Shown here in pieces: positions 4,974 through 35,638 of a stretch of DNA of 64,000 nucleotides (within the stretch, counting starts at the first letter, position 1; each line of letters starts with the position of its first letter). The stretch is taken from positions 997 through 64,996 of the forward strand of contig CALVOW010000005.1 in NCBI GenBank assembly GCA_944350445.1, written 5' to 3'. This DNA is from an uncultured Bacilli bacterium. Its GTDB lineage: Bacteria; Bacillota_I; Bacilli_A; RF39; UBA660. Both the position numbers and the translations under genes were made by a program. The notes under the pieces were generated by a model. The model saw nothing but the letters and a program-made list of their open reading frames with translations, ran no database searches and was not told the origin of the DNA.

Positions 4974-5035
4974 AAAAAATTAAAATAGGTAATAGTTTAT
5001 TTTTCTATCCATGATATAATAATAAAGAGGTGGAT

Positions 5036-5422
5036 ATGAAAAAAGGATTTACATTAGTTGAATTATTAGGAGTAATTGTTGTTATTGCAATTCTTGGAAC
5101 TTTGGCTGTTGTATCAGTTAATTATTTAGTAAATAACGGTAAACAAGGGGTTTATGAAAACTATGAAACAACTTTAAAGGGAGCAGCTGAAAATTATCTG
5201 ATTAATCATATGGATGAGGTTCCTAATCAAAATGCTAGTATAACAAAAACCTTAGATGAGTTAGTTGCTAGTAATGAAATAGAAAGATTAAAAGATCCTA
5301 ATGGAGGGGATTGTGATTCTAGTTATGTAGTTATATCTAGAGGAGCTGATGTTTCTAATAACTTTAATTTAAGTTATAAAGTTTGTTTAATTTGTGATAA
5401 TTATCGAAGTGATGGTTGTTAA
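5036..5422 (+). CDS. Prepilin-type N-terminal cleavage/methylation domain protein (ComGC/pseudopilin-like)
   Basis: MKKG|FTLVELLGVIVVIAILG is a class III signal peptide with Glu at +5. I moved the start from GTG 5030 to ATG 5036. No assembly genes lie nearby. Confidence 0.7.
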   Translation: MKKGFTLVELLGVIVVIAILGTLAVVSVNYLVNNGKQGVYENYETTLKGAAENYLINHMDEVPNQNASITKTLDELVASNEIERLKDPNGGDCDSSYVVISRGADVSNNFNLSYKVCLICDNYRSDGC

Positions 5423-5440
5423 TATTATTTCCAAATTAAA

Positions 5441-5490
5441 AATGTAGAAAGTTATTTTAATTTAATAATTTTCTACATTTTTATTTTTTT
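5441..5490. terminator. Bidirectional intrinsic terminator between the convergent pilin-like and HIT genes
   Basis: Hairpin atgtagaaa(5442-5450)/tttctacat(5470-5478), followed by a T-run on the plus strand and preceded by an A-run. Confidence 0.5.
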
Positions 5491-5493
5491 TAA

Positions 5494-5892
5494 TTATTCA
5501 TTGGTTGTAAGCATCTTTTTAATTTCTTTTAAATCTTTTAAAAGGTCTTTATTTGAAAAATGTTTAACTTCATCATTTTTATATCTCGGTATAAAGTGCA
5601 TATGCATATGTTTTATTTCTTGTCCATAGTCGAGATTGGTTGATAAAGTTAGACCATCACAATTTAATTTTTCTTTATAAATAGGATATAATTTTTGATA
5701 AATTTTTTGCATATGAAGTAAAATGTCATCGGGTATTTCTAATATATCTTGAAAATGTTTTTTGGGAATGATTAAAGTATCCCCATTAGTAGTTGGATTA
5801 ATATCTAAAAAGGCTAAAACTAGTTCATCTTCATAAATAATTTCACTTGGTATTTCAGAATTAATGATTTTACAAAATAAACAATCTTTCAT
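5494..5892 (-). CDS. HIT (histidine triad) family nucleotide hydrolase
   Basis: 132 aa with the histidine triad motif HMHMHFIP near the C-terminus and an N-terminal CLFCKI. Confidence 0.85.
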   Translation of the reverse strand: MKDCLFCKIINSEIPSEIIYEDELVLAFLDINPTTNGDTLIIPKKHFQDILEIPDDILLHMQKIYQKLYPIYKEKLNCDGLTLSTNLDYGQEIKHMHMHFIPRYKNDEVKHFSNKDLLKDLKEIKKMLTTNE

Positions 5893-20850: not shown

Positions 20851-22014
20851 ATGAAATTTAAGCGTATTTTTTTAATTGTTTTAGATTCCCTGGGAGTAGG
20901 AGAGAGTGTTGATGCAAGTAATTATAATGATAAAGGAGCTAATACTCTTGGTAATATTTTAAAAAATTATGATTTATTTATTCCCAATTTAAAAAAATTA
21001 GGTTTTTTAAATACTTTAACCATGAATAATAAAGAAAGTGAAGCTTATTATACAATTGCAAGACCTAAAAACAAAGGAAAAGATTCCTTATCTGGTCATT
21101 ATGAATTAATGGGAATTGAAAATAGTATTCCCTATAAAACTTTTAATGAAACGGGATTTCCAAGAGAATTATTAGAAACAATTGCTAATCAAACAAAAAG
21201 AGGAATAATTGGCAATATTGTTGGAAATCCTACTAGTATTATTAATAAACTTGCAAAAAGACATATTGAAACTGGAGCTTTAATTATTTATACAACAAGT
21301 GACTCTAATTTAGAAGTTGCTGCTTCTGAGGATATTATTCCGATTAATGAGTTATATCAATATGCAGAAATTATTAGAGAAATTACCAAAAGAGAAGAGT
21401 GGAAAGTAGGAAGAGTAGTGGCACGCCCTTTTAAAGAACAAGACGGTGAATATATTTTAACTAATAATACAAGATATTTTACTTTAATGCCTCCAAATAA
21501 AAGCGTTTTAGATATTTTAAAAAATAATAATTTACAAGTAATTTCGATTGGTAAAGTTCATGATCTTTATAATGGCTATGGCATTACGAAAATTATTAAA
21601 TCTGGAAATAATCAAGAAGGTTTAAATAAATTATTAAGTATTATGGATAAAAATTTTACAGGTCTTTGCTTTTTAAATTTAAGTGATTTTGATACTTTAT
21701 ATGGTCATCAAAGAGATGTAAAAGGATATGCCAAAGAAATTGAGAAATTAGATGTAGAGATTCCGATTATTTTAAATAAATTAAATCTTGACGATTTATT
21801 AATTATAACAGCTGATCATGGTTGTGATCCAACCATGCCAGGCTTTAATCATACAAGAGAAAATGTTCCAGTTATTGTATATTCACGATTATTCAAAGAA
21901 CCTAAACAATTAGATGTATTAGAAAGTTTATCGGATATAGGTGCAACAATTGTTAATAATTATGATCTTGAAAGACCATGGATGGGAACAAGTTTTTTAG
22001 ATAAATTAAAATAA
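20851..22014 (+). CDS. deoB: Phosphopentomutase
   Basis: 387 aa with N-terminal VLDSLGVGE and the metal-binding ITADHGCDPT, typical of DeoB. Confidence 0.9.
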   Translation: MKFKRIFLIVLDSLGVGESVDASNYNDKGANTLGNILKNYDLFIPNLKKLGFLNTLTMNNKESEAYYTIARPKNKGKDSLSGHYELMGIENSIPYKTFNETGFPRELLETIANQTKRGIIGNIVGNPTSIINKLAKRHIETGALIIYTTSDSNLEVAASEDIIPINELYQYAEIIREITKREEWKVGRVVARPFKEQDGEYILTNNTRYFTLMPPNKSVLDILKNNNLQVISIGKVHDLYNGYGITKIIKSGNNQEGLNKLLSIMDKNFTGLCFLNLSDFDTLYGHQRDVKGYAKEIEKLDVEIPIILNKLNLDDLLIITADHGCDPTMPGFNHTRENVPVIVYSRLFKEPKQLDVLESLSDIGATIVNNYDLERPWMGTSFLDKLK

Positions 22015-22083
22015 ATAAACTTTTATAGGCATTTACATATATTAATATGGAGGTGCTTTTTTATTAAATTTAATTATAAAGAT

Positions 22084-22503
22084 ATGTTAAATCAGTATTT
22101 AACAAATATATACATGTTAAGAAATAATATATATAATTTACATTTTAATATTAAAGGCGAGGGTAGTAGTGGTTTTCATGAAAAGTTAAACTATGATATA
22201 GAAGAAGTTAATAAATTTTATGATAGTTTAGCTGAATTAATAAAAAAAATAGGAGGATATCCTATTATGAATTTAGAAGAAATTAAAATGATTTCTACTA
22301 TTAAAGAAATATCTAGTAAAGATTATACTAAAAAGGAGGCTGAAAATCTTTTATTAAATGATTTAACAGTTATAAATAGTATGAATAAGCAAGTAGGGGA
22401 ATATGCCCTTAAAAACTATGATTTGACGAGTATAAATCTTGTACTAGATTTTGATAAATATTTACAAAAAAGGATTTGGTTACTAGAGATGGATAAGAAT
22501 TAA
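22084..22503 (+). CDS. dps: Dps family (ferritin-like) DNA-protection protein
   Basis: 139 aa. LNQYLTNIYMLRNNIYNLHFNIKG and the following helices match the Dps four-helix pattern. Confidence 0.7.
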   Translation: MLNQYLTNIYMLRNNIYNLHFNIKGEGSSGFHEKLNYDIEEVNKFYDSLAELIKKIGGYPIMNLEEIKMISTIKEISSKDYTKKEAENLLLNDLTVINSMNKQVGEYALKNYDLTSINLVLDFDKYLQKRIWLLEMDKN

Positions 22504-22509
22504 TAATTA

Positions 22510-22668
22510 TTATTGAAGTTCATTAGATTCAAAACGATCGTCGCATTTATCACAAATATTTTGGTTTGATTTAGCATCTATTTTATTTTTAGCTGAATTT
22601 GTCATATTGTTTGATTTAGTTTTATTTGTCATTTTGCTATCAAACTTTTTATTTTTTTTGTTTTTCAT
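22510..22668 (-). CDS. Small K/N-rich protein (52 aa), unknown
   Basis: Not in the ORF track (under 60 aa). RBS aagggtga is followed by ATG 22668. Sequence MKNKKNKKFDSKMTNKTKSNNMTNSAKNKIDAKSNQNICDKCDDRFESNELQ. Confidence 0.3.
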   Translation of the reverse strand: MKNKKNKKFDSKMTNKTKSNNMTNSAKNKIDAKSNQNICDKCDDRFESNELQ

Positions 22669-22726
22669 TTTATCACCCTTTTATATTATGTGAAATTATA
22701 AATTTAATATGTAAAAAATGAATACA

Positions 22727-22771
22727 CTTCCCCTATCAAAATTTGGTATTTAAATAGGGGAAGTTTTATTT
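22727..22771. terminator. Stem-loop with flanking T/A runs at the outer edge of the CRISPR island
   Basis: cttcccctat (22727-22736) pairs with ataggggaag (22754-22763). ttttattt follows on the plus strand and a weaker T-rich tail on the minus strand. Confidence 0.4.
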
Positions 22772-22842
22772 AAAATAGTTATAAATTTAAGTGCTCTAAA
22801 ACGAATCGAGAAAGATAAAATTAATTAAAAGCTAATATAAAG

Positions 22843-23096
22843 TAATAAAAGCAACATTAAACTAGATGTTAATTCAAATAATAATAATATTATATATAAT
22901 ATTTTGATATTTATACGCCCAAAATTATTTTCAATTCAACTTCATATAATATATATTATGTTAACTTCTGTAATTGGTATATTTAAACCTTATTACCCTA
23001 CTTTTCCTCCTTTCGTCACAGAACAGTTTAAGGTACCTATCCGGGCGTATATGCTATCAGTACACTACTTTATAGGTAGTGTATAATAAAAGCACT
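22843..23096 (-). ncRNA. Unclassified structured element, copy A (homologous to 24676-24893)
   Basis: Read on the minus strand, directly after the stop of ORF 23097-23327. Hairpin acactac-N7-gtagtgt (23062-23082) is followed by actgat. A long-range pairing joins tatacgccc with gggcgtata (about 22912-22920). It shares 16-mer and 10-mer blocks with copy B, and its core is locally GC-enriched. Confidence 0.4.
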
Positions 23097-23327
23097 CTAT
23101 TTTTGAGCACTATTTTTACAGATGTTAATAATTTCTAACAATTCTTTTTCACAACCTTCTGCTTGTTTATAAACAACCTTAAAATCATTAGGATTTTTTA
23201 GATTTTCTATATTGTTATAATTAGTTTTTAACAAACATATTAACCCATTCATTTTTTTTAAATCATTTTTATATTCTTTTCTAATATAACTATCTACTTC
23301 TTCTAATAAATGATATTGTTTATTCAT
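23097..23327 (-). CDS. Small phage-derived ORF (76 aa), candidate immunity-type protein
   Basis: Its ATG overlaps the TGA of the upstream gene fragment (ATGA). The position is equivalent to ORF 24894-25091 in the large insert. No family recognised. Confidence 0.4.
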   Translation of the reverse strand: MNKQYHLLEEVDSYIRKEYKNDLKKMNGLICLLKTNYNNIENLKNPNDFKVVYKQAEGCEKELLEIINICKNSAQK

Positions 23328-23506
23328 TTGGCTTTTTCACCCTCTTTAACTAAAATTATACCACGATTTAATATAATATACATATCATTCTGCTTAACAA
23401 CATCATAATTTGATAATATTGTTGTTGCACTTTCATTTGAATTCATATAATCAAGAATTGTTGTCACTTTATCGCCGTATTTATTATAATATTCTTCCAG
23501 ATTATT
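23324..23506 (-). pseudogene. 3'-terminal 60 codons of a foreign (phage-like) gene, truncated exactly at the last CRISPR repeat
   Basis: The minus-strand frame is open from the repeat boundary: NNLEEYYNKYGDKVTTILDYMNSNESATTILSNYDVVKQNDMYIILNRGIILVKEGEKAK*. It has no start codon of its own. Confidence 0.5.
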
Positions 23507-23507
23507 G

Positions 23508-24436
23508 GTTTTAATACCATTTAAAATGTCATAGAACTAAAACTTATACTCTACATTATCAGTATAAATCTCTGTTTTAATACCATTTAAAATGTCATAG
23601 AACTAAAACTCAATTGTCGACAGTTTGGAGGTGATAAACGTTTTAATACCATTTAAAATGTCATAGAACTAAAACCGAAATTAATAATATCAAAAAAACC
23701 AGTGGTATATCGGAAACAAGTCCGAATCGACCTACTGGTTTTTCTGAAAATAATATACCACAATCTAGCAATAATGTCAAATCGGATACATCTACTAAGT
23801 ATTCTATGCAAGAAATTCAAGATAATACACTGTTAAATAATTCTAAATCAAACCAACAACCACAAAATTCCACAAAGTCTAAACATACTGATTATATAAA
23901 TAGTGAAGTAAATTATTTAGCTGATCAAATAGATAACATAAATAATAATGATAAAGTGACATTTGAAGATATAGATGAAATTGTTTACAATTCTCCATAT
24001 TATAAGTTTTAATACCATTTAAAATGTCATAGAACTAAAACTATTAATTTCCTCCTTTTAAATCATAAATGGTTTTAATACCATTTAAAATGTCATAGAA
24101 CTAAAACCTGGTAGCCATTTTCAACTTTTACTATTTGTTTTAATACCATTTAAAATGTCATAGAACTAAAACACTATTAAAGATCCATTTTATAATCAAA
24201 CAGTTTTAATACCATTTAAAATGTCATAGAACTAAAACAACTAAAATGTCATTTCCAATGAAGTTATAGTTTTAATACCATTTAAAATGTCATAGAACTA
24301 AAACATAATCTAAAATGGACTATTGACATATAACGTTTTAATACCATTTAAAATGTCATAGAACTAAAACAAATTATTATAATAACCAAGAACACTTTCT
24401 GTTTTAATACCATTTAAAATGTCATAGAACTAAAAC
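23508..24436 (-). CRISPR. CRISPR array, leader-distal segment: 10 identical 36-bp repeats
   Basis: Repeats start at 23508, 23574, 23640, 24006, 24072, 24137, 24203, 24269, 24335 and 24401. The repeat in transcription sense is GTTTTAGTTCTATGACATTTTAAATGGTATTAAAAC. Spacers are 29-30 nt, except for one 330-nt segment. Confidence 0.95.
23676..24005 (+). other. Oversized (330-nt) inter-repeat segment: internal fragment of a foreign coding sequence
   Basis: Bounded by perfect repeats (23640-23675 and 24006-24041). One plus-strand frame is open across the whole segment (EINNIKKTSGISETSPNRPTGFSENNIPQSSNNVKSD..NYLADQIDNINNNDKVTFEDIDEIVYNSPYYK). Confidence 0.8.
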
Positions 24437-24611
24437 TTAAATCCTCTTTACTTGGTAAGTTTCTAGTCTTTCTAGCTACTTCTTTTTTTAAAGCTTCATT
24501 AAATTCTTCTTGAGTAGCGAAAGCTTTTTCCACTTTTTCTTCTGTAGTCTGTGTTTCTACATTTTCAGTTACTTTTTCTTCTGTAACATTTTGAACATTT
24601 TCTTGTTCCAT
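24437..24611 (-). pseudogene. 5' fragment of a phage scaffold-like gene, truncated by a CRISPR repeat
   Basis: RBS gaagggag is followed by ATG 24611. The acidic N-terminus MEQENVQNVTEEKVTENVETQTTEEKVEKAFATQEEFNEALKKEVARKTR resembles Firmicute phage scaffold proteins. The last residues of the tracked ORF are encoded by the repeat. Confidence 0.5.
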
Positions 24612-24675
24612 AAATTCTCCCTTCTTTTAAGTCATTAAGTTGGACTTAACCATTCTTTATTGTCTTTATGTTGGA

Positions 24676-24893
24676 CATAATAAAAGAACGTATTTCTACG
24701 TCCTGAAGTGCGTTTATAAGCACTGTACTGACGATAGAATGCCGTTTATTCCCACTTACCCTACTCTGTGTTATCAGCTGGTTCACATTTTGCCTTATCT
24801 AGTGGGTTTAGTTGAATAGAATACGTCTATTCCTGTGCCTCGCGTCATCAGTACACTACTTATAAATATAAAGTAGCGCATAATAAAAGAGCA
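24676..24893 (-). ncRNA. Unclassified structured element, copy B (between the small ORF and the scaffold gene)
   Basis: Minus strand. The ORF terminator (aagagca..tgctctt + ttattat) comes first, then hairpin gcgctactt-N9-aagtagtgt (24853-24879). A closing helix joins gtactga..cg with cgtcagtac. Internal hairpins are gaataga/tctattc, cccact/agtggg and agtgc/gcact. A GAAA-capped terminator ggacgta-gaaa-tacgttc + ttttattat closes it, then the RBS of the scaffold gene about 60 nt later. Confidence 0.45.
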
Positions 24894-25091
24894 TTATTTT
24901 GCTCTTAATTTCATTTCTTTTATATCTTTAATATAAATATTATAATTACCTACATATATTGAAGAATCATCTTCATCTTCGTCAAAAAAAATACCAGTTA
25001 TTTTTTCTCCACTATTTAAAATCACTTCAACTTCTTTTTGAAAGCAATTTAAATACCTTTGTGCAAATTCTTTATTTGTCATTATCATCAC
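24894..25091 (-). CDS. Small phage ORF (65 aa) downstream of the MuF-type gene; candidate immunity protein
   Basis: Overlaps the MuF-like stop by 20 nt. Acidic 65-aa product MMIMTNKEFAQRYLNCFQKEVEVILNSGEKITGIFFDEDEDDSSIYVGNYNIYIKDIKEMKLRAK. The assignment rests on position only. Confidence 0.4.
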   Translation of the reverse strand: MMIMTNKEFAQRYLNCFQKEVEVILNSGEKITGIFFDEDEDDSSIYVGNYNIYIKDIKEMKLRAK

Positions 25092-25899
25092 CTCTTATGT
25101 TTTTAAACTGTGCATTGTTGCTTGCTGGCACAATATGAACACCATTTTTTTCAGAATAATGAATTACAAATGAATTAGTTTCTTCTTCAACATTATAATT
25201 TTTATTAATATAAACTCCAATCACTTTATTTGTACTACATATTTCTTTATTTTGAATATTGCCTTTTATAGTTAATGGTGTGTATCCCTTTGTTGCATAT
25301 TCATTTACCAGTTTTTGTTCTTCTTTTATATCAATATTGAAATAACTCTTTCCTTGAATATATTTTTCACTATTTATATTGTGTTTCAGTTGCTTATCTT
25401 CATTTATCTTTATCAAATTTGGATTTTCTTTAATTTTATTATTTCGTAAAAGCAATTGTTTATATCCATTTAATGCTACTTCATCTGTAACATTATTATA
25501 CACCTTTTTTGCTTCTTTTAGCAAGTTTTCTTTTTTTTCTTTTTTATTTTTCCAATTTTGATAAGTTTTAGTACTTTTTTCTTTAACTTTAGGACTTAAC
25601 TCAGTGCTGCCAATCCATTCATTAGCAGTAATTCTAGTTCTACCAGTCTTATCTAAGAAACTTAAATATTCTTTTTTAGTGTTACTTAAACTATTTTGTT
25701 TTATTTTTATATAAGTAGGCTCTGCTCCGGTTTGTTTAAGCATTGCTATTTCTCTTTTTTTGTTGCGAATAGCTCTTTCGTATTGACGTTGTCTTTGTTT
25801 TTCTACATAAGCCTCATCATTTTCTTTTTTTGTAAAGTCCATTTCTCTTTTTTTTGATAAACCAGGAACAAACATATATCTTGAATGACCACAATTAAT
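25072..25899 (-). pseudogene. Exon 2 of a phage MuF/SPP1-gp7-type minor capsid gene with a C-terminal toxin-like extension (exon 1 absent)
   Basis: Starts INCGHSRYMFVPGLS (NC(R/G)H motif at the end of the MuF domain). YVEKQRQRQYERAIRNKKRE is typical of Firmicute minor capsid proteins. The tail ..NSFVIHYSEKNGVHIVPA is like MuF-fused nuclease/toxin modules. The tracked Met at 25902 is an artefact of the intron end. Confidence 0.6.
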
Positions 25900-26199
25900 C
25901 ATTTCTTGTTAGCTTATATTTCTATAAGTGTCGGACTATATCTTCCTCTAATAGAGGCATCGCATTTCAAATAACGTATCAATAGTTATCTTACATGGCT
26001 AAACTCATCACCATTAGTCTCTACACCTTTTTATAAATATTTCCACACATAACCATAAGCTGTTTTTCGATAAGTATGTCCTTTCAAAACCTTTACTATA
26101 ATGGAACTTGCGTTTAAAGATTTTGTCATGTTGTTTTTTATTAACCATCTTTCGGCTTCTCTAATTCCATTAAATTCCATTACTAATTTATTGTTTTTA
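25900..26199 (-). mobile_element. 3' portion of a group I intron (subgroup IA-like) carrying a homing endonuclease remnant, truncated by a CRISPR repeat
   Basis: Minus strand. P7 5' strand ggtgtagagac, then two hairpins (atgg..ccat and ataac..gttat, P7.1/P7.2-like). P8 is cctct-atta-gagg, with J8/7-like aagatatagtc and P7 3' strand cgacac. P9 is cttata-gaaa-tataag, with terminal G at 25900. The boundary is independently confirmed by spacer 27028-27057. Confidence 0.75.
26031..26198 (-). pseudogene. C-terminal 55 codons of an intron-encoded homing endonuclease (NUMOD/HTH-type DNA-binding tail)
   Basis: The frame is open from the repeat boundary: KNNKLVMEFNGIREAERWLIKNNMTKSLNASSIIVKVLKGHTYRKTAYGYVWKYL*. 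The pattern ..EA...L......I..VL.G...TA.GY.W.Y is the usual C-terminus of phage GIY-YIG/HNH homing endonucleases. Confidence 0.55.
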
Positions 26200-28215
26200 G
26201 TTTTAATACCATTTAAAATGTCATAGAACTAAAACATTTCTTTTTTGCTTTTTCCATTTTTATTTGTTTTAATACCATTTAAAATGTCATAGAACTAAAA
26301 CGCATTTGCAACTACTGATTTGTTTTCTGCAGTTTTAATACCATTTAAAATGTCATAGAACTAAAACTTTACTCTACCTACAACACCATTTCTAGCAGTT
26401 TTAATACCATTTAAAATGTCATAGAACTAAAACTACACAATAACACAATAACGCCAAAAGCAAGTTTTAATACCATTTAAAATGTCATAGAACTAAAACC
26501 ATAAGTTGTAATATCTATAAATTCATCTGGTTTTAATACCATTTAAAATGTCATAGAACTAAAACATTTCTTTTTTGCTTTTTCCATTTTTATTTGTTTT
26601 AATACCATTTAAAATGTCATAGAACTAAAACGCATTTGCAACTACTGATTTGTTTTCTGCAGTTTTAATACCATTTAAAATGTCATAGAACTAAAACACT
26701 GACTTATGCTATACTATATTTGTAATTGTTTTAATACCATTTAAAATGTCATAGAACTAAAACCGACAACTTTAATCTTCCAAAACTTCAATTGTTTTAA
26801 TACCATTTAAAATGTCATAGAACTAAAACTAACACCTATGTATTGATAAAACATTTCAGGTTTTAATACCATTTAAAATGTCATAGAACTAAAACCTACG
26901 ACGCGGTTGGCTTCTCGCTTGAGGAGTTTTAATACCATTTAAAATGTCATAGAACTAAAACCTAGTAAATGTTTAACCCCCTTGATATCTTGTTTTAATA
27001 CCATTTAAAATGTCATAGAACTAAAACGAATATTTGGTATTAATTGTGGTCATTCAAGTTTTAATACCATTTAAAATGTCATAGAACTAAAACACATCTA
27101 CATAACTAAACCCTTGTGGCGTAGTTTTAATACCATTTAAAATGTCATAGAACTAAAACCATTGCACTTATTTTATGACTAATATAGGAGTTTTAATACC
27201 ATTTAAAATGTCATAGAACTAAAACATAATTACATTTTCTAATTTCGATAGGTAAGTTTTAATACCATTTAAAATGTCATAGAACTAAAACAGAATATGA
27301 ATTTTACGAAATCAATTATATGTTTTAATACCATTTAAAATGTCATAGAACTAAAACAGGTGTTAAGACTGCTACAGAGGTAGTATCGTTTTAATACCAT
27401 TTAAAATGTCATAGAACTAAAACAGTGTAATGATGTATGAAAAATTACCTTTTGTTTTAATACCATTTAAAATGTCATAGAACTAAAACATTAATATAAG
27501 CGTCACTATTCCAAGAACAGTTTTAATACCATTTAAAATGTCATAGAACTAAAACTAAGTAGCTTTTAATGAAGATTTAACTTCTGTTTTAATACCATTT
27601 AAAATGTCATAGAACTAAAACTGATTAGCTATTGTTCCTAATGGCGGAGGTGTTTTAATACCATTTAAAATGTCATAGAACTAAAACATCATACATGATC
27701 ACATATTCATCGGGATGGTTTTAATACCATTTAAAATGTCATAGAACTAAAACTATTAGACAATTATATTGTCTCACATATTAGTTTTAATACCATTTAA
27801 AATGTCATAGAACTAAAACAAACATACTTAATTCTTTCTATAACCTTTTGTTTTAATACCATTTAAAATGTCATAGAACTAAAACATATCAATCATTTTA
27901 CTACTATCTTCGGGTGTTTTAATACCATTTAAAATGTCATAGAACTAAAACAATAGAATTGGAGTTTATTGTGTCAATGCAGTTTTAATACCATTTAAAA
28001 TGTCATAGAACTAAAACTCTTTGTTTACTAGCTTATATGTAATTCCGGTTTTAATACCATTTAAAATGTCATAGAACTAAAACGCGACTACTAATCAATC
28101 GACGACTACTAATGTTTTAATACCATTTAAAATGTCATAGAACTAAAACTTATAATCTCTAATTTGAAGCGAATAGCTCGTTTTAATACCATTTAAAATG
28201 TCATAGAACTAAAAC
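26200..28215 (-). CRISPR. CRISPR array, leader-proximal segment: 31 identical 36-bp repeats and 30 spacers of exactly 30 nt
   Basis: Repeats start at 26200 + 66k for k = 0..30. The sequence is the same as in segment 1. It is transcribed from the leader at 28216-28296 toward lower coordinates. Confidence 0.97.
26530..26661 (-). repeat. Duplicated repeat-spacer-repeat-spacer block (identical to 26200-26331)
   Basis: Spacers atttcttttttgctttttccatttttattt and gcatttgcaactactgatttgttttctgca each occur twice (26236/26566 and 26302/26632). Confidence 0.9.
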
Positions 28216-28296
28216 CTCAAATGGTTTTAATTCTAAAAGATCCATAGAAAATCAGTTATTTTAAATGATATTTATTTCTACAACATTCTATAATTA
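28216..28296 (-). promoter_or_regulatory. CRISPR leader (between the csn2 stop and the first repeat)
   Basis: 81-nt AT-rich segment. In transcription sense it ends ..ccATTTGAG directly before repeat 1. It contains a degenerate repeat-like copy at 28224-28256. Confidence 0.7.
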
Positions 28297-28974
28297 TTAT
28301 AACACAAATTCTTCTAATTCATTATCAATAATTAATTTATTTTCATAATTAAGTTTTACTCCATAGCTTTGACTATCAATTAAAATTATTGTTATATTAT
28401 TATAAATAGCATATTTATATAATTCTTCTAATTCTTCTTTCGATAATAACTGTTTTAAGTTTACCAAAAACAAAATTTCATTTGTTTTTAAAACAGACTC
28501 TAAGTCAATTAACAAAAGTAAATTATCAAGTAAATCATTTTTATCATTTATAGATACTTTAAATAATTTAATAATATCATCAATTATTAAATCTTCGTTT
28601 AAAATTAATGGAAGATCAATATTTTTTAATATATTAGCTACACTTTTATACATTTTTTTATAAATATTAAATATTTGTTGTTTGTCTATGTCGCTTAAAT
28701 TATTAATTATTTTTTTATTTAAAGAATTAAGATTTTTTTTAGAATTTAAATCAAGATCAAAAAAATTAATATATATTTCAATTTTTGATTGAAGATTTAT
28801 TTCTTCATTTTGATTATCATAAAAATATAGTTCATTTGTATAATCACCATTTTTTATAAGATATAAATCACTAATAAATTTATAAAACATTTTCTTGTTT
28901 TCAATTTCAACAACTTGAATATTACTATCATTTAAAAAAATATTATTATTAAAATAATTCACTCGTAAATTCAT
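28297..28974 (-). CDS. csn2: CRISPR-associated protein Csn2 (type II-A signature)
   Basis: 225 aa, the last gene of the cas operon, directly followed by leader and array. Size and N-terminus (MNLRVNYFNNNIFLNDSNIQVVEIENKKMFYKF) are typical of canonical Csn2. Confidence 0.85.
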   Translation of the reverse strand: MNLRVNYFNNNIFLNDSNIQVVEIENKKMFYKFISDLYLIKNGDYTNELYFYDNQNEEINLQSKIEIYINFFDLDLNSKKNLNSLNKKIINNLSDIDKQQIFNIYKKMYKSVANILKNIDLPLILNEDLIIDDIIKLFKVSINDKNDLLDNLLLLIDLESVLKTNEILFLVNLKQLLSKEELEELYKYAIYNNITIILIDSQSYGVKLNYENKLIIDNELEEFVL

Positions 28975-29291
28975 AAAACAACCAACCTATCTTCACTATT
29001 AATTATTTTGGTATTTTCACAACCGGAAATAAATTCAATTTTTGAATATTGTTTTTCCGTTATCGTTAAAACTTGAATAATCCCTTTTTTAGGAGCTTTT
29101 TTTCTAATTCTTTCAATTAATAATTTAGATTGTTCACTGTTTAAAACTATTTTAGAATAAACAGATTCTTGCATCATTAAAAAGCCTTCATTTATTAAAA
29201 ATTTTCTAAACATTATATAATTTTTTCGATCTTTTAAATAAACGTTTGGTAAATCAAAGAAAACAATTGTTCGCACTACTCTATCCCTCAT
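28971..29291 (-). CDS. cas2: CRISPR-associated endoribonuclease Cas2
   Basis: About 106 aa starting MRDRVVRTIVFFDLP (Cas2 beta1 with conserved Asp). The tracked ORF extends to 29321, but ATG 29291 abuts the cas1 stop. Confidence 0.85.
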   Translation of the reverse strand: MRDRVVRTIVFFDLPNVYLKDRKNYIMFRKFLINEGFLMMQESVYSKIVLNSEQSKLLIERIRKKAPKKGIIQVLTITEKQYSKIEFISGCENTKIINSEDRLVVL

Positions 29292-30150
29292 AAATAAAAT
29301 CCTTATATTCTTTATTTTCACTTAAAACCTTAAAAGTATTTTTCACATAAAGTTCAATAATATCTTTTAAAGTATATTTTTTTGAATTAAAAGTATAAAT
29401 ATTATTAAAAATATTAATTATATCAAGTTTTAAATTACTATCTAATTCTCTCTCTTGATTATAATAAACAAAAGCATCAATTATAACTCGAAATGGTTCC
29501 ATTAAATCACAAGCCAAATTAAAAGGGTTAAATTCATTTTTATGGTGAATTCCTAATTGTGTTAAATACCCATTGTTAGTTATTTCTTTACTAATTGTTG
29601 ATAATAAAATAGCATAGCCATAATTTAATTTAGCATTTATGATGTCGTTATTACCTCTTGAAAATTTTTTTCCAAATAAGGCATTAAAATAAACCTTAGA
29701 AGCATGTCCTTCGCGATTACTTTTATCCCCTACTCCCACTTCATCAACATAACTAAAAACAAGATTTGCTTGTTTACTTTTAATTTTTTTTAGTAAAAAA
29801 GCTTGATTTATAATTTTATTTTTAACAATTAAAGTCCATAAATTATCTTTATTTTTTAATGTCCATTTTGTTTGTTCAATGATTTTTTTACTGGAATTAT
29901 GCCGAGAATAAAATGGCTGTATTTGACCATAAGGATTATGTTTTTCATCGCAAAAAATAATATTAATTTTGTTATCAGTTAATTCTTTCAATAAATAAGA
30001 AGAAATAGATACAGATATAGAATCAACTATAATTGTATCTATTTCTGATAAGTGAATATATTTTTCTTCAATATCTTTTTTAACGACTAAAAATCTATTC
30101 TTGTAACTTATTTTGGCTTGATTAGCGATGACAACTGTTCTAAAACTCAT
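29281..30150 (-). CDS. cas1: CRISPR-associated endonuclease Cas1 (type II)
   Basis: 289 aa, overlapping the cas9 stop. Typical type II Cas1 N-terminus (SFRTVVI..AKISYKNRFLVVKK) and a conserved C-terminal helical domain (GIHHKNEFNPFNLACDLMEPFR). Confidence 0.9.
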   Translation of the reverse strand: MSFRTVVIANQAKISYKNRFLVVKKDIEEKYIHLSEIDTIIVDSISVSISSYLLKELTDNKINIIFCDEKHNPYGQIQPFYSRHNSSKKIIEQTKWTLKNKDNLWTLIVKNKIINQAFLLKKIKSKQANLVFSYVDEVGVGDKSNREGHASKVYFNALFGKKFSRGNNDIINAKLNYGYAILLSTISKEITNNGYLTQLGIHHKNEFNPFNLACDLMEPFRVIIDAFVYYNQERELDSNLKLDIINIFNNIYTFNSKKYTLKDIIELYVKNTFKVLSENKEYKDFIYEG

Positions 30151-33100
30151 ATCGACTCTCTTTAAGACCAGCAGGAGATTTAAATATTAAAGTTCCAGAC
30201 TTAATATTTATCCCATTTTGTCGTCCTATTCGACTACTCATTTTTTTATCATGAAGTTTTATTTTATCTAAATTTGCATTAGTTGAATTACATTTTAACA
30301 TTTTAAATATTTCTTGTATAACTTCTACTTTCGAAATACTTGTTTTATCATCATTGTTTATTTGCAAATTAAGATTTTGAAATTTATTTAATGATTTAAG
30401 TAATTTAAATTTTTCTAATTCATTACTATATAATGGATAAGAAAGTTCAATTTTATCTAATATTAAATCATATAATTCAATTATTTGTTTATCAAAAATT
30501 TCTAACCAATATTTTTTACCTTCGAAATTATTTTTATAACTTGGAATTCTTTGATTAAAAATAAAATTCAATAAATTTTTATATTTAATTTGTTCTTCTT
30601 TAGTTAACTTAAATTCAATATTATTAATAACTTCAGCAGATTTAGTACCACAACCAGTTATACAACATTTTTGATTTTTATATATTATTTCAATATTAAA
30701 AGGTATTCTATCTTTTTCTATAATATAATTATCACAGTTTAACTCTTTTATAATATAATTATTAATTTCTTCTTTTAAATTTTTCTTTTTAGTTAAAATA
30801 ACTGGTATTCCTATTAATGCTTTTTCTTCTTTATTCTTTTTTTGATACTTAACTAATATCATATATGAATATTGACAAGATGTATAACCACCATATATTT
30901 TAGGATCTAAGTTTTCTTTGATATTTATTAAAGATTTATTAGAAGTTGCTTTATAAATAGTTTCTTTATAAAATGCACCAGTATTAATAAAAGTTTTTTT
31001 ACTTATTAAAATATCATTTCGATATAAAGTATTGGCAATTTTTTCAATAAATTCCTTGGTATTAAATAATACTTCTCCAGTTTTTTCATCAATTTTTAAA
31101 TAATTTTCATCAATACTATTAATAACATAACCATATTTTAATTCATTATAACGTTTTTCAGTAAGTAATTTTTTAACTAATTCAAAAAATTCTGATTTAT
31201 TTAAAGTTCTTTTTAAATATTTTGTTTGATAAATTCCCAAAGTAATTGCTAAATAAGCATCATGAGCATGATGGTAATCATTTAAATTACGATATTTATA
31301 CAATTTAAATCTTTGACGGTAATTACTAGAAATATTGGCTTTTAAATAAATTACATTGGTATTTTTATATAAGCTTTTTAAAATATTAGCTACATGTTTA
31401 GTAATTTGTCTAGTTTCAACTAATTGACGATTGATAAATCCTTCAATATCTTTGTCGGTAAAATCAGTACGCATTAAATTGTTGTACTTCTTAGAAGACA
31501 TTAATTCTATTTCTTTTAAATGTTTCCACCAACCACTTTGTTTTTGAAATTCCCTTGGTAAAACTAGGTTATCACGTTTAATTTGATTTTCTTCTTTTAA
31601 TACCAAGGCTTTATTATCAATAGAATCATCTTTAATTAAAGTTTGAGGTAAGATATGATCAACTTCATATTTATCTGTATATAAGTCTTCAAAAATAATA
31701 GATGTACCAGAATATAAACTTTTACCTTCTTGTAAGAAGTATAAAAATAATTTTTCTTTATCAATTTTTTCAACATTTTTAAGTTTATCTTTTAATTCTT
31801 GATAATTTTTAATTTCGGTTTTATTTTGGTCATATATATTTAATAGTCTTTTTTTCCGATCATCTTTTCTAACTTTCTTTTCATCACTTCTTGACATTTC
31901 TATACTAATATTCTTTGGTTCGTATCCCATATAATCAATTATTTCTTGAACTACTTTTAAAGCTTGATAAATTCCTCGTTTAGTAGCAGGGGAAGTAGCC
32001 AAATCACTAACTAAGGAGTAATCTAATTTCGTAATTTCTTCTTGATTATTTTCTTCTTGAATAAATTTTTGAAAATTATATTGTGGATTATTGATAATTT
32101 GCATGAAATTTTCTTTGGTTTCCCACATTAAATCCATTATTGATTTAAAAGTATTACTTTCTTCATCATAATAGTATTTTGTTTCTAACAATTTTCTTGA
32201 TAAATTACTCCATCCTTTATAATTTTTAGTTAAAATAGTATTCATTTTTGGTAATAAATTAGGATATAATTCTGTAATTTCTTCTTTTAATATTTCTTTA
32301 TCTTCTAAAACAGTTATTAATTCTATAATTTTTTCAGCGTCATCTATTGTTAAATTTGTATCTTTAAAAATACCATTATCACCAAAAAAATCTATATAAG
32401 AATCCATATTATTAGCAAATTTTAAATCAGATGAATAACCATCAATTCTAATATCAGCACTATCTAAATCAATATACATTGATATTTCATTGGTTGTTCT
32501 TAAATAATTTTGAAATTTTTTATCGGTTAAACTACCTTTATTTTTTAAGAAAAATTCTTTATATATTTTATGTTGAAATGCTAAATCTATTTCTTTATCA
32601 TTTATTTTAATTTGCTTTAATTCATTTAAAACTTTAAATTTTGAATATAAAAGAGAATTATTAGGAATAGCATATTCATCTAATAAATAACTAGATTTAC
32701 CTATCATTCTATAAATAAAATTTTTAGCTGATTTTCGAATATCAACAACTTCTTCAAAATTATAAGGCGTTATTTTTCCTTTACTTTTTCTTACCATCCA
32801 AGCAAAAGGATGATTTTCATTTGCAACTAAAGGTCCAACATAATAAGGAATTCGAAATTTTAAAAGTTTAACAATTTTATATTCGCCTTTTACTTTTTCT
32901 AACAAAAAATGATAATATTGTCCTTGATTTTCAAGAATAATTTTTAGTTCGGCTAGATTTAATTGATAAGGAAATTTACCATTTTGGGTATCAGCTATTC
33001 TTGGCAAGAAAGAACTATTTTCCATACTATCTAATATCTTTTTAATTTGTTCTTGATTTTCCTTAGTAGTTATTTGTTCCAAAACTTTTTTTAATTCATT

Positions 33101-34267
33101 AGTAAATTCGGTATAAGTTAATTGATTTCTTATATATTTAGTATAAACAGATAATTCTTCTTTATTATCTTTAATTTTATCTTTAAATAGTCTTCTAAAA
33201 TTACTTTGATAAGGACGAATTAAATCTTTAATAAGGTGTAAATCCTTCTTTTGTTTATTATAATTAGCAACCATTAAATTAGAAATACTAGCACTATCTT
33301 GATTTTTAAAAAGTTGTTTTAAAGAAATCATATCATATAACTCTTTAAAAGCATTAATTACTTCAAATTCTTCTGGTAATTCACTTTGTAATTTATCTAT
33401 TTCCTTATCTATATTTATATCTGTAAAATCTATCTTTTTAACATTTTCGATATTTTTAGCAAATAAATTTTCTAAATTAGCATTACTGCCAGCTAATAAA
33501 GATGCTATTTCTTTACTAACTTTATTGTGAAATTGCGTTGTTAATTCTTTTATAATTGCTTTCTTTTTATCATTTTTATTTTGAATATAAAAGGCATTTT
33601 CTAATTCTTTTAGATTAATATTATCAATACTTGGTTCTTGATTATAAATATCTGTACATATTTCAAAAATTGTATTTAAAACTTCTTCTAATTTTTCTCG
33701 AACATTGATTTTTTCGATATTAAATTCGTCCATATTATAATTAAAATTACCACGATATTTAATAATATGATGAATTGCTAAGTAAATAAGGCGAAGATCC
33801 TCTTTTTCTTTATTAATAATTAATTTTTTTCTTAAATGATAAATAGTTGGATATTTATTATCTACGCAACTAATCATTCTTTTATTTTGATAAATTACTT
33901 CTCTTTTTAAATTACTAAAAATTTCTTTTTTATCGTAATTAGTTAAAGGTATTTTTTTATTTTTAATATCATCAGGACTAATATTACTTGTTTTTAATTT
34001 TTGAAAAAAAGTAGGATCAACTTTATTTATTTCTTCTCTAAACTCATCTTGTAACAATCTAATTCTCTCCCGTCTTCTGTCATATCTTCTCCTTGTACTT
34101 CGAAAATTTCTTCTATCAACAGCTGTTGTTGCCATGTCAAATAATCTAACTCCCCATAAAGATTTTTGTTTATTACCTTTTTTAATTATGTTAAAATTAT
34201 CATCAATAACAGCATAACCTACTGATGCTGTTCCAATATCAAGTCCAATATTATAATCTTTTTGCAT
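30140..34267 (-). CDS. cas9: CRISPR-associated endonuclease Cas9 (type II-A, SpCas9-sized)
   Basis: 1375 aa. RuvC-I IGLDIGTASVGYAV, an Arg-rich bridge helix RRNFRSTRRRYDRRRERIRLL, HNH YEVDHILPQ..DNKALV, and RuvC-III NDYHHAHDAYL. Confidence 0.97.
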   Translation of the reverse strand: MQKDYNIGLDIGTASVGYAVIDDNFNIIKKGNKQKSLWGVRLFDMATTAVDRRNFRSTRRRYDRRRERIRLLQDEFREEINKVDPTFFQKLKTSNISPDDIKNKKIPLTNYDKKEIFSNLKREVIYQNKRMISCVDNKYPTIYHLRKKLIINKEKEDLRLIYLAIHHIIKYRGNFNYNMDEFNIEKINVREKLEEVLNTIFEICTDIYNQEPSIDNINLKELENAFYIQNKNDKKKAIIKELTTQFHNKVSKEIASLLAGSNANLENLFAKNIENVKKIDFTDINIDKEIDKLQSELPEEFEVINAFKELYDMISLKQLFKNQDSASISNLMVANYNKQKKDLHLIKDLIRPYQSNFRRLFKDKIKDNKEELSVYTKYIRNQLTYTEFTNELKKVLEQITTKENQEQIKKILDSMENSSFLPRIADTQNGKFPYQLNLAELKIILENQGQYYHFLLEKVKGEYKIVKLLKFRIPYYVGPLVANENHPFAWMVRKSKGKITPYNFEEVVDIRKSAKNFIYRMIGKSSYLLDEYAIPNNSLLYSKFKVLNELKQIKINDKEIDLAFQHKIYKEFFLKNKGSLTDKKFQNYLRTTNEISMYIDLDSADIRIDGYSSDLKFANNMDSYIDFFGDNGIFKDTNLTIDDAEKIIELITVLEDKEILKEEITELYPNLLPKMNTILTKNYKGWSNLSRKLLETKYYYDEESNTFKSIMDLMWETKENFMQIINNPQYNFQKFIQEENNQEEITKLDYSLVSDLATSPATKRGIYQALKVVQEIIDYMGYEPKNISIEMSRSDEKKVRKDDRKKRLLNIYDQNKTEIKNYQELKDKLKNVEKIDKEKLFLYFLQEGKSLYSGTSIIFEDLYTDKYEVDHILPQTLIKDDSIDNKALVLKEENQIKRDNLVLPREFQKQSGWWKHLKEIELMSSKKYNNLMRTDFTDKDIEGFINRQLVETRQITKHVANILKSLYKNTNVIYLKANISSNYRQRFKLYKYRNLNDYHHAHDAYLAITLGIYQTKYLKRTLNKSEFFELVKKLLTEKRYNELKYGYVINSIDENYLKIDEKTGEVLFNTKEFIEKIANTLYRNDILISKKTFINTGAFYKETIYKATSNKSLINIKENLDPKIYGGYTSCQYSYMILVKYQKKNKEEKALIGIPVILTKKKNLKEEINNYIIKELNCDNYIIEKDRIPFNIEIIYKNQKCCITGCGTKSAEVINNIEFKLTKEEQIKYKNLLNFIFNQRIPSYKNNFEGKKYWLEIFDKQIIELYDLILDKIELSYPLYSNELEKFKLLKSLNKFQNLNLQINNDDKTSISKVEVIQEIFKMLKCNSTNANLDKIKLHDKKMSSRIGRQNGINIKSGTLIFKSPAGLKESRYEF

Positions 34268-34300
34268 ATTGACATACCTCCTATAATATGTTATATTTAA

Positions 34301-34392
34301 GTAGTCTTAATACCATTTAAGATGTCATAGAGAGTTAAAATAAAGGTTTACCCTAAACATTAACTTATGAAACTGGTTAGCCAGTTTTTTTT
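34301..34392 (+). ncRNA. tracrRNA
   Basis: Divergent from cas9. The anti-repeat cttaataccatttaagatgtcatagag matches the plus-strand repeat apart from two substitutions. A nexus-like agttaaaataaagg follows, then the terminator hairpin actgg-ttag-ccagt and T8. A tataat -10 box lies at 34282-34287. Confidence 0.8.
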
Positions 34393-34542
34393 ATGACAAA
34401 AATTAATTTTTGAAAAATTAAGTACTACCATCTAAATAGATGATACCATATTTTGGAAATTTTTACTATTAATTTTTAATTTAAAAAACCAGTTACTCTT
34501 TCTGAATAACTGGATTTTTCATTATCATTAAATTGTTATATA

Positions 34543-34833
34543 TTATTTTTTATAATAATTCTTATTTTTATAATAATTTTTATTTTTGTAATAGTATTTA
34601 TTTTTATTATTATTTTTCTTTTTTAAAGGAACTTTATTACTTTCTTCAATTACATCTTCCGGATGATTGTAAATAACGTTTTCTTGTAAAGCCTGTTTTT
34701 TCTTTAAAGGTTTTACAAACACTTGCAAATATGTCCAAAAAATACCAATTAAAAGCGCTAATGCTGCAATATAATAAAATGTTAAATTCCAAGAATCATT
34801 ATATTTTGTAACAGTTTCTAAAATATTTATCAT
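34543..34833 (-). CDS. Small membrane protein with a Lys/Asn/Tyr-repeat C-terminal tail
   Basis: 96 aa with one TM helix (ALALLIGIFWTYLQVF). The tail is KKNNNKNKYYYKNKNYYKNKNYYKK. Confidence 0.4.
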   Translation of the reverse strand: MINILETVTKYNDSWNLTFYYIAALALLIGIFWTYLQVFVKPLKKKQALQENVIYNHPEDVIEESNKVPLKKKNNNKNKYYYKNKNYYKNKNYYKK

Positions 34834-34870
34834 AATACCACCTTCTTATTCTTCCCATTTTTTTTTAAAT

Positions 34871-35638
34871 CTATGCAGCTCGTGTTTGAATTTCTGCTAT
34901 TTTTTCAAGAACTTCTTTGGCATTTTCATCAGTAATACCAGTAAAACCTAATTCTTTTAAAGCTTGAGCTGTTACAGTATTTAATTCTTCAGTTCGACTT
35001 AATTTTTCTTCATGTTTTCTTTCAATTTCTTGAACAAAACGACGATGTGTCTCAGCTATCTTACTCTTAGCTGCTCCCCCATTATTATAAAGAGCAAAAG
35101 CACTAAAAATGATACTTTCAAAATTAAATTGTTGATCTTGATTGAATAAAAATTCCATAGGATCAGTAAAGCCCATTAATTTAGAAACAAAACAAAGTAA
35201 ATATTTTAATTCTTTACTATTACCCATACTTTGTAAATAATGATATAAGTAAACATAAGTATTATAAGTATCTTTGGTATGATCATCATGAAGTCTATCT
35301 TTTAAAAGCGAAATAATATCGGTTAAAATTTCAACTTCTTTACGATTAAACCCTTTTAAATCGATTAGATTACTTCCTGATAAAGCAACTTTAACACCTT
35401 CATTTAACTTTGTATCTATTTTAATAATATATTCTCCATCTATCTCTATATTATCTAAATCTGCTTCTTTTTTAATTTCCAATAATTGCATTAATCTAGT
35501 TGCTTTCTCACTTGGCCAATCTTCTAGTTTATCAAGAGCTAAATAATTATATAACATTTGTCTTGAAACTCCTAAATATTTTGCTAATCTTACTTTTGAA
35601 ACTCCTATTTCGGATAGTATATTATTAATTTTACTCAT
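34871..35638 (-). CDS. Helix-turn-helix (XRE-type) domain protein
   Basis: 255 aa with an N-terminal HTH ILSEIGVSKVRLAKYLGVSRQMLYNYL. The C-terminal domain is unassigned. Confidence 0.55.
   Translation of the reverse strand: MSKINNILSEIGVSKVRLAKYLGVSRQMLYNYLALDKLEDWPSEKATRLMQLLEIKKEADLDNIEIDGEYIIKIDTKLNEGVKVALSGSNLIDLKGFNRKEVEILTDIISLLKDRLHDDHTKDTYNTYVYLYHYLQSMGNSKELKYLLCFVSKLMGFTDPMEFLFNQDQQFNFESIIFSAFALYNNGGAAKSKIAETHRRFVQEIERKHEEKLSRTEELNTVTAQALKELGFTGITDENAKEVLEKIAEIQTRAA

Follow-up and report, generated by a model that had tools for sequence, protein, structure and literature searches.

The stretch of DNA analysed here, 64,000 nucleotides (nt) of contig CALVOW010000005.1 from an uncultured Bacilli bacterium (assembly GCA_944350445.1; hereafter the window), carries a type II-A CRISPR locus with its cas genes, and phage DNA stands in the array where spacers are expected. 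The host assembly comprises 1.34 Mb with 26% guanine plus cytosine (GC), and the relatives closest to it in public data are metagenome-assembled genomes of uncultured gut Bacilli. The array encloses 40 inter-repeat segments, 38 of which measure 29–30 nt (36 unique; modal length 30 nt), and the other two, of 1763 and 330 nt, lie outside the canonical Cas1–Cas2 spacer length of 30 ± 1 nt. A third stretch of phage DNA follows the last repeat as a trailer. The features of the array and its junctions are as follows:

23508–28215, minus strand: CRISPR array of 41 identical 36-nt repeats, the first at 28215 and the last ending at 23508
24437–26199, minus strand: 1763-nt phage fragment in spacer position, recognised by the Pfam domains Phage_min_cap2 and Ntox50 and by colinearity with phages
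26170–26199, minus strand: 30-mer A, presumed former spacer at the leader-proximal junction of this insert, matching phage contig L093 (734–763) at 29/30 positions
26167–26169, minus strand: TGG, the retained protospacer-adjacent motif (PAM) of 30-mer A; L093 also has TGG at this place
24437–24466, minus strand: 30-mer B, at the leader-distal junction of the insert, abutting repeat R32
23676–24005, minus strand: 330-nt insert, an antisense fragment of a gene for a large polyvalent protein (LPD3-type), with TCT at +31 to +33
23056–23507, minus strand: phage-derived trailer, 94% identical over 455 nt to phages L094 and L095
23478–23507, minus strand: 30-mer T2, presumed former spacer after the last perfect repeat, matching L094 (6567–6596) and L095 (1043–1072) at 28/30 positions
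23475–23477, minus strand: CGG, the retained PAM of T2; phages L094 and L095 have TGG there

When positions are counted on the minus strand from the leader-proximal repeat, bases 31–33 are those expected to hold a PAM. A sequence-only reading of the window had reported that the 1763-nt insert consists of 30 nt (26199–26170) and then TGG (26169–26167), that the trailer consists of 30 nt (23507–23478) and then CGG (23477–23475), and that the 330-nt insert has TCT (23975–23973) after its first 30 nt (24005–23976); the DNA reads exactly so at all three places. That reading had also put the expectation for GG at a fixed position at a few percent; the GG dinucleotide was measured at 2.2% of positions genome-wide, at 2.4% in the DNA of related phages and at 2.4–2.7% within the inserts. 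A fourth, independent junction, from another strain (contig L040), has TGG at the same offset, so that NGG stands at +31 to +33 in three of the four proximal junction types of the species. The single distal junction that is open to testing, that of the 1763-nt insert, is PAM-adjacent as well. NGG at this offset is confirmed as a correct and non-random observation.

The PAM of the system was read from spacers of the species. Exact look-ups of Csn2, of the insert's open reading frame (ORF) and of the trailer's ORF yielded about 30 further contigs of this species, drawn from other samples, and parsing of their arrays gave 298 unique spacers, which were compared, with up to three mismatches allowed, with the host's own prophage on contig C2 and with eight phage loci from IMG/VR. 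Protospacers were found for 51 of them. NGG follows the protospacer in 29/51 cases, against a background of about 2.4%; position +1 is T in 27, A in 12, C in 12 and G in none, position +2 is G in 33 and A in 12, and position +3 is G in 41, and the 5′ flank of the 51 protospacers carries no sequence signal. The PAM read from these flanks is NGG with a minor NAG class, as had been predicted from the two NGG junctions, and the orientation of the flanks also bears out the premise that the PAM-proximal end of a spacer abuts the leader-distal repeat. The four junction PAMs (TGG, CGG, TGG and AGG) all agree with the missing G at +1. Seven spacers of the window match the C2 prophage (about 35–67 kb of that contig) imperfectly, at 23–29 of 30 positions, and five of these seven sites are followed by NGG. 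Two of them (S04 and S15) match at 29/30 with a TGG PAM, their lone mismatch lying 2–3 nt from it, and S23 matches at 28/30 with CGG; about 19 spacers of other strains match this prophage perfectly. It looks like a seed-escape variant tolerated as a lysogen.

The genes that serve the array lie upstream of it:

30140–34267, minus strand: cas9, an ORF of 1375 amino acids for an SpCas9-like type II-A effector
29281–30150, minus strand: cas1, an ORF with Pfam Cas_Cas1
28971–29321, minus strand: cas2, an ORF with Pfam CRISPR_Cas2
28297–28974, minus strand: csn2, an ORF with Pfam Cas_Csn2
28216–28296, minus strand: leader of 81 nt between csn2 and the array
34304–34331, plus strand: anti-repeat, probably the trans-activating CRISPR RNA (tracrRNA), upstream of cas9 and divergent from it

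A cas9–cas1–cas2–csn2 operon beside the array, 36-nt repeats, 30-nt spacers and an anti-repeat together place the locus in type II-A. In local comparison with the repeat's reverse complement the anti-repeat scores highest (46; 19–25 elsewhere), and it is probably the tracrRNA. The Pfam domains Cas9-BH, REC, HNH_4, RuvC and PI were read on the identical gene in strain contigs, and phmmer aligns residues 1–1157 to SpCas9 chains with an E-value of about 1e-140; the alignment ends at residue 1157, so that the PAM-interacting domain has no SpCas9 alignment by this method. The system resembles the NGG-recognising type II-A systems of SpCas9 type in its gene order, its 36-nt repeat starting with GTTTTAG, its 30-nt spacers, the anti-repeat upstream of cas9 and the 3′ NGG PAM with a minor NAG class. 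It differs in the unaligned PAM-interacting domain, in the absence of G at PAM position 1 (0/51) and in its host, which belongs to an uncultured lineage of gut Bacilli and has a genome of about 1.3 Mb (26% GC). A scan of positions 21000–35000 against Rfam returned the CRISPR repeat as its sole match, under the gathering score, and no match for an intron remnant or a structured element. Within the array, spacers S24 and S25 recur as S29 and S30 through an exact 168-nt duplication of two spacer–repeat units (26236–26331 and 26566–26661), which is missing from other strains that carry S26, S28 and S30.

The content of the 1763-nt insert can be followed gene by gene in phages. From its leader-proximal end it holds the last 55 codons of a homing endonuclease (a GIY-YIG C-terminus), about 130 nt ending in G that form the 3′ part of a group I intron, and exon 2 of a MuF gene (ORF 25072–25902), in which the C-terminal end of a Phage_min_cap2 (MuF) domain is fused to an Ntox50 toxin domain; an ORF of 62 amino acids (24897–25082), a structured region in which two hairpins resemble terminators, and the beginning of the following phage gene complete it. 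Insert positions 301–1763 are colinear, at 80–93% identity, with the IMG/VR phages L031–L035, with L009, a prophage in another genus, and with the host's own prophage. Positions 1–335 match phage contig L093, which was found by searching for longer proteins that contain the 55-residue fragment, a search that led to a GIY-YIG endonuclease of 209 amino acids. This contig (1073 nt, with no CRISPR repeat) runs from MuF exon 1 through the group I intron with its endonuclease gene and 3′ part into MuF exon 2. 30-mer A lies inside the intact endonuclease gene, and the homology of the array to it begins at the first base of the insert. At the other end, the homology of related phages stops at the insert's last base, and AGG follows the phage counterpart of 30-mer B in L031, L033 and L009, three of the five phages. 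At each end, therefore, the insert breaks off at precisely the base that bounds a PAM-flanked 30-mer, and the two 30-mers lie on the same strand of the phage. No spacer of the host's own array was found to match the retained phage DNA.

Spacer S18 (27028–27057) matches the intron-less MuF exon junction of phages at 26–27 of 30 positions, on the opposite strand and with a CAG flank; in the insert (25900–26030) and in L093 this site is split by the group I intron with its GIY-YIG endonuclease, and 19 matching nucleotides remain. An element richer in GC, with no Rfam match, lies at 24676–24893 and at 22843–23096, after the small ORFs of both phage-derived segments, and also in the related phage loci L016, L020 and L031; it has terminator-like hairpins (24906–24887, 24704–24685 and 23111–23091). 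A search of a GenBank phage collection with the insert and with the array gave trivial matches only, and exact-pattern scans of IMG/VR for the T2 and A regions found nothing.

The trailer has a comparable origin. It contains the C-terminal 60 codons of a phage protein of 249 amino acids, an intact ORF of 76 amino acids (23100–23327) and a terminator-like hairpin. The 60 codons continue straight from the last repeat and share 97% identity with the C-terminal end of that protein, whose gene stands in L094 and L095 in the order terminase, portal, MuF, 249-residue gene, 76-residue ORF and scaffold; the homology to these phages runs from the junction and ends at the hairpin. The counterpart of T2 lies inside the 249-residue gene. 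The phage contigs that bear the counterparts of A or T2 have no CRISPR repeat, and in them the 30-mers stand inside intact genes and are followed by TGG. The proposal that each of the two NGG cases is a spacer followed by its PAM is supported by these phage 30-mers and by homology that extends from the first base. The distal end of the trailer has no downstream repeat and joins chromosomal DNA, and the DNA from about 23049 downward is common to strains that lack any CRISPR locus (L068–L070). In a protein-pattern scan of IMG/VR for the 76-residue ORF nothing was found.

The terminal repeats of CRISPR arrays are usually degenerate. The terminal repeat of the window's array is a perfect copy. In strain contig L066 the array ends conventionally, its terminal repeat being degenerate and its short trailer a different one, so the perfect last repeat of the window's array is derived. 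In L040 a single repeat is followed by 30 nt, TGG and a different 5′-truncated phage toxin gene (trailer T3). In phage coordinates, the ends of the T2 and T3 trailers (those of the window's strain and of L040) lie no more than about 30 nt apart, at a conserved hairpin motif; this suggests that an additional exchange with another phage may have put one in the place of the other. Two other arrangements were seen at the site of the CRISPR-cas island: in L068–L070 the whole island is missing between a gene for 96 amino acids and an ORF for 52 beside a ferritin gene, and in L065 a different element with a REP_ORF2-G2P replication protein occupies the place.

These structures are present across the population. 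The 1763-nt insert, in variants of 1734–1770 nt with the same two ends, occurs in 12 or more contigs that come from different samples and assemblers and whose leader-side spacers are wholly different. Its exact ORF of 276 amino acids occurs in 52 collection blocks; the 10 places shown are all in or beside a CRISPR array, and none of them is a phage contig. The identical Csn2 occurs in 101 such blocks and the ORF of the trailer in 355. The inserts recur in at least 15 independent assemblies, and the T2 trailer and the 330-nt insert (the latter in strains L041, L058 and L059) likewise recur across strains. Mere coincidence or artefact, in which the NGGs are due to chance and the segments to misassembly or to unrelated illegitimate recombination, is hardly credible on these grounds. 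The window offers only three junctions and one of them lacks NGG, which leaves some room for chance; however, at least two of three junctions with NGG at a pre-specified offset have a probability of about 0.001–0.003, and three of four a probability of about 1e-4. The same structures stand in many independent ENA and Logan assemblies, a recurrence that shows that the inserts are not assembly artefacts, and the homology breakpoints match the 30-mer boundaries to the base. A phage-borne mini-array was likewise rejected on the anatomy of the junctions and the recurrence across assemblies.

It could further be supposed that a prophage integrated site-specifically into a CRISPR repeat and then decayed by deletion. 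Some phages are known to integrate into type II-A repeats, and in PhiAP1.1 of Streptococcus pyogenes attP matches the repeat, attB lies inside it and an integrase inserts the whole prophage (bioRxiv 10.1101/2020.10.09.333658). The two situations are alike in that phage DNA lies inside a type II-A array and remodels it, and spacers can go. In the present locus, unlike PhiAP1.1, the junctions fall at spacer boundaries, only fragments are found, and neither the 1763-nt nor the 330-nt insert holds an integrase. The flanking repeats are all perfect and complete, the phage homology begins 30 nt upstream of a PAM in structural or homing-endonuclease genes and not at an att site, and related phages have no repeat-like sequence at these positions. 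Integration into a repeat would also not predict NGG at +31 to +33. Integration of the PhiAP1.1 type is largely refuted by the anatomy and the positions of the junctions, and this explanation is very improbable.

The model that best accounts for the locus, and probably the right one, proposes homologous recombination between a spacer and its protospacer in phage DNA, followed by loss of the remaining phage. An ordinary 30-nt spacer would recombine with the matching protospacer of an infecting phage, and a crossover within spacer A would leave a recombinant array that reads repeat, 30-mer, NGG PAM and downstream phage DNA. The junction of phage and array lies at the repeat-proximal boundary of the PAM-flanked 30-mer for A (in L093) and for T2 (in L094 and L095), and at the distal boundary for B (in L031, L033 and L009). 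At its far end the 1763-nt insert would have a second spacer–protospacer junction, at 30-mer B. A double crossover could yield such an insert; more plausibly, integration of the whole phage at spacer A was followed by a deletion from protospacer B to the array's spacer B, this second exchange removing the remaining phage together with the intervening spacers. A Cas9 cut at protospacer B could promote the deletion through single-strand annealing. In the trailer, the proximal junction would again be a spacer (T2, with CGG) and the distal end joins the chromosome; replacement of the original degenerate terminal repeat in this way would account for the perfect last repeat. The sequences themselves show the PAM, the phage origin, the precise place of the junctions at both ends and the spread through the population; the former spacer status of the 30-mers, the succession of events and a part played by RecA or Cas9 are inferred.

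The product would be stable. The proximal 30-mers have no repeat after them, so no CRISPR RNA (crRNA) is expected from them and the retained PAM should be harmless. There would accordingly be no crRNA against the site formed by A and TGG, none of the array's spacers matches the phage DNA that was kept, and 30-mer B, which still abuts a repeat, should remain usable as a guide.

The earlier reading had named two mechanisms, recombination of a spacer with phage DNA and a prespacer that was never trimmed; the first fits better and the second fits poorly. In the second, Cas1–Cas2–Csn2 with Cas9 would have integrated an overlong, incompletely trimmed prespacer whose PAM-distal end was measured correctly from one PAM, processing of the opposite end having taken place at a second PAM or not at all. 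Such aberrant adaptation also puts NGG at +31 to +33 and the far end of the insert beside a PAM site, and L040, where a single repeat precedes 30 nt, TGG and phage DNA, could be taken for an integration whose second step failed. However, all 298 normal spacers measure 29–31 nt, which points to a strict ruler, and integration does not produce trailers that lack a downstream repeat and are joined to the chromosome. We know of no report of the integration of a kilobase prespacer, and a literature search for one found none. Recombination is favoured because the far end of the insert stops at an NGG-flanked 30-mer and because the trailer has no downstream repeat, and aberrant adaptation appears unlikely.

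Several observations weigh against spacer–protospacer recombination. Exchange over only 30 bp is rare, and the 1763-nt insert needs two such events, or one event and a precise deletion. In two of the five phages (L032 and L035) the counterpart of 30-mer B is followed by AAG and not AGG. The expectation that the terminal 30-mers would occur as ordinary spacers in related strains was not borne out: A, B, T2 and T3 are absent as such from the 298 spacers of about 30 strain loci, and JGI metagenomes, scanned for a repeat followed by B and for the region of A and its PAM, gave nothing. This absence is weak evidence, given the small sampling and the age of the events. The 330-nt insert has TCT at +31 to +33 and no close source, so that one of the three segments of the window lacks the signature, and ATT stands at that offset in a 903-nt coding fragment from the array of a different species of the family (L002). 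The signature is thus not carried by every oversized segment.

The 330-nt insert is open in one frame on the plus strand, and its distant homologues, at 57–78% identity, carry PF18798. L026 is the only nucleotide homologue that reaches its distal end, at 74% identity, and is too diverged for a PAM to be read; a protein-pattern scan of IMG/VR for the fragment found nothing. The 903-nt segment of L002 (G155:C40) is the 29th of 30 inter-repeat segments, and one sense frame of 300 codons is open throughout. A further junction, in L056, has AAT at +31 to +33; here the array is broken after S32 (4557–5768) by an element that encodes an rve/Mu-type transposase, and the junction was set aside as a test case and treated as a transposon insertion.

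Recombination between spacers and protospacers of phages and CRISPR loci has reportedly been described in staphylococci by Varble and colleagues in 2019 (Nat Microbiol 4:956). As described in secondary accounts, the staphylococcal recombinants resemble the present ones in that the crossover falls within about 30 bp of homology between spacer and target, and the product reads repeat, spacer and contiguous phage DNA including the PAM side. They are laboratory events seen as transducing particles, whereas the products described here are fixed in a natural gut species, keep only 0.45–1.8 kb of phage DNA, derive from at least three events at one locus and in one instance are bounded by two different spacers. 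Recombination of a spacer with its target is an established process, reported to form phage–CRISPR hybrids (Varble et al. 2019, cited in PMC8616872 and in bioRxiv 10.1101/2020.10.09.333658). The evidence thus supports a natural, repeated variant of a process known from the laboratory, and not a new kind of system.

The 1763-nt insert and the trailers T2 and T3, which are the three fragments of resolved origin, all derive from one site in related phages, where the MuF minor-capsid region ends C-terminally in a polymorphic toxin and a small ORF lies downstream. In each of the three this small ORF is intact, of 62 (24897–25082), 76 (23100–23327) and 61 amino acids (L040 8571–8756); it has the same sense as the pre-crRNA and stands directly downstream of a 5′-truncated toxin C-terminus associated with MuF. 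The captured ORFs are possibly orphan immunity genes. It may be asked whether the array is a recurrent capture site for this one phage module, in which orphan immunity genes against the toxins are kept by selection and cassettes are swapped with incoming phages. This idea is doubtful; if it were true, CRISPR memory would double as a gene-capture device.

Laboratory work has shown that recombination of spacers with their phage targets is one way in which CRISPR loci come to be transduced. The window would provide its natural, base-resolved footprints, fixed in a widespread gut species after at least three events at one locus and marked diagnostically by the retained PAM. The order of repeat, one spacer length, PAM and foreign DNA offers a signature with which other arrays can be mined, and it would explain perfect terminal repeats as well as the “giant spacers” that array finders usually throw out. 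Arrays of this kind can, on this model, lose memory and gain phage genes in a single step.

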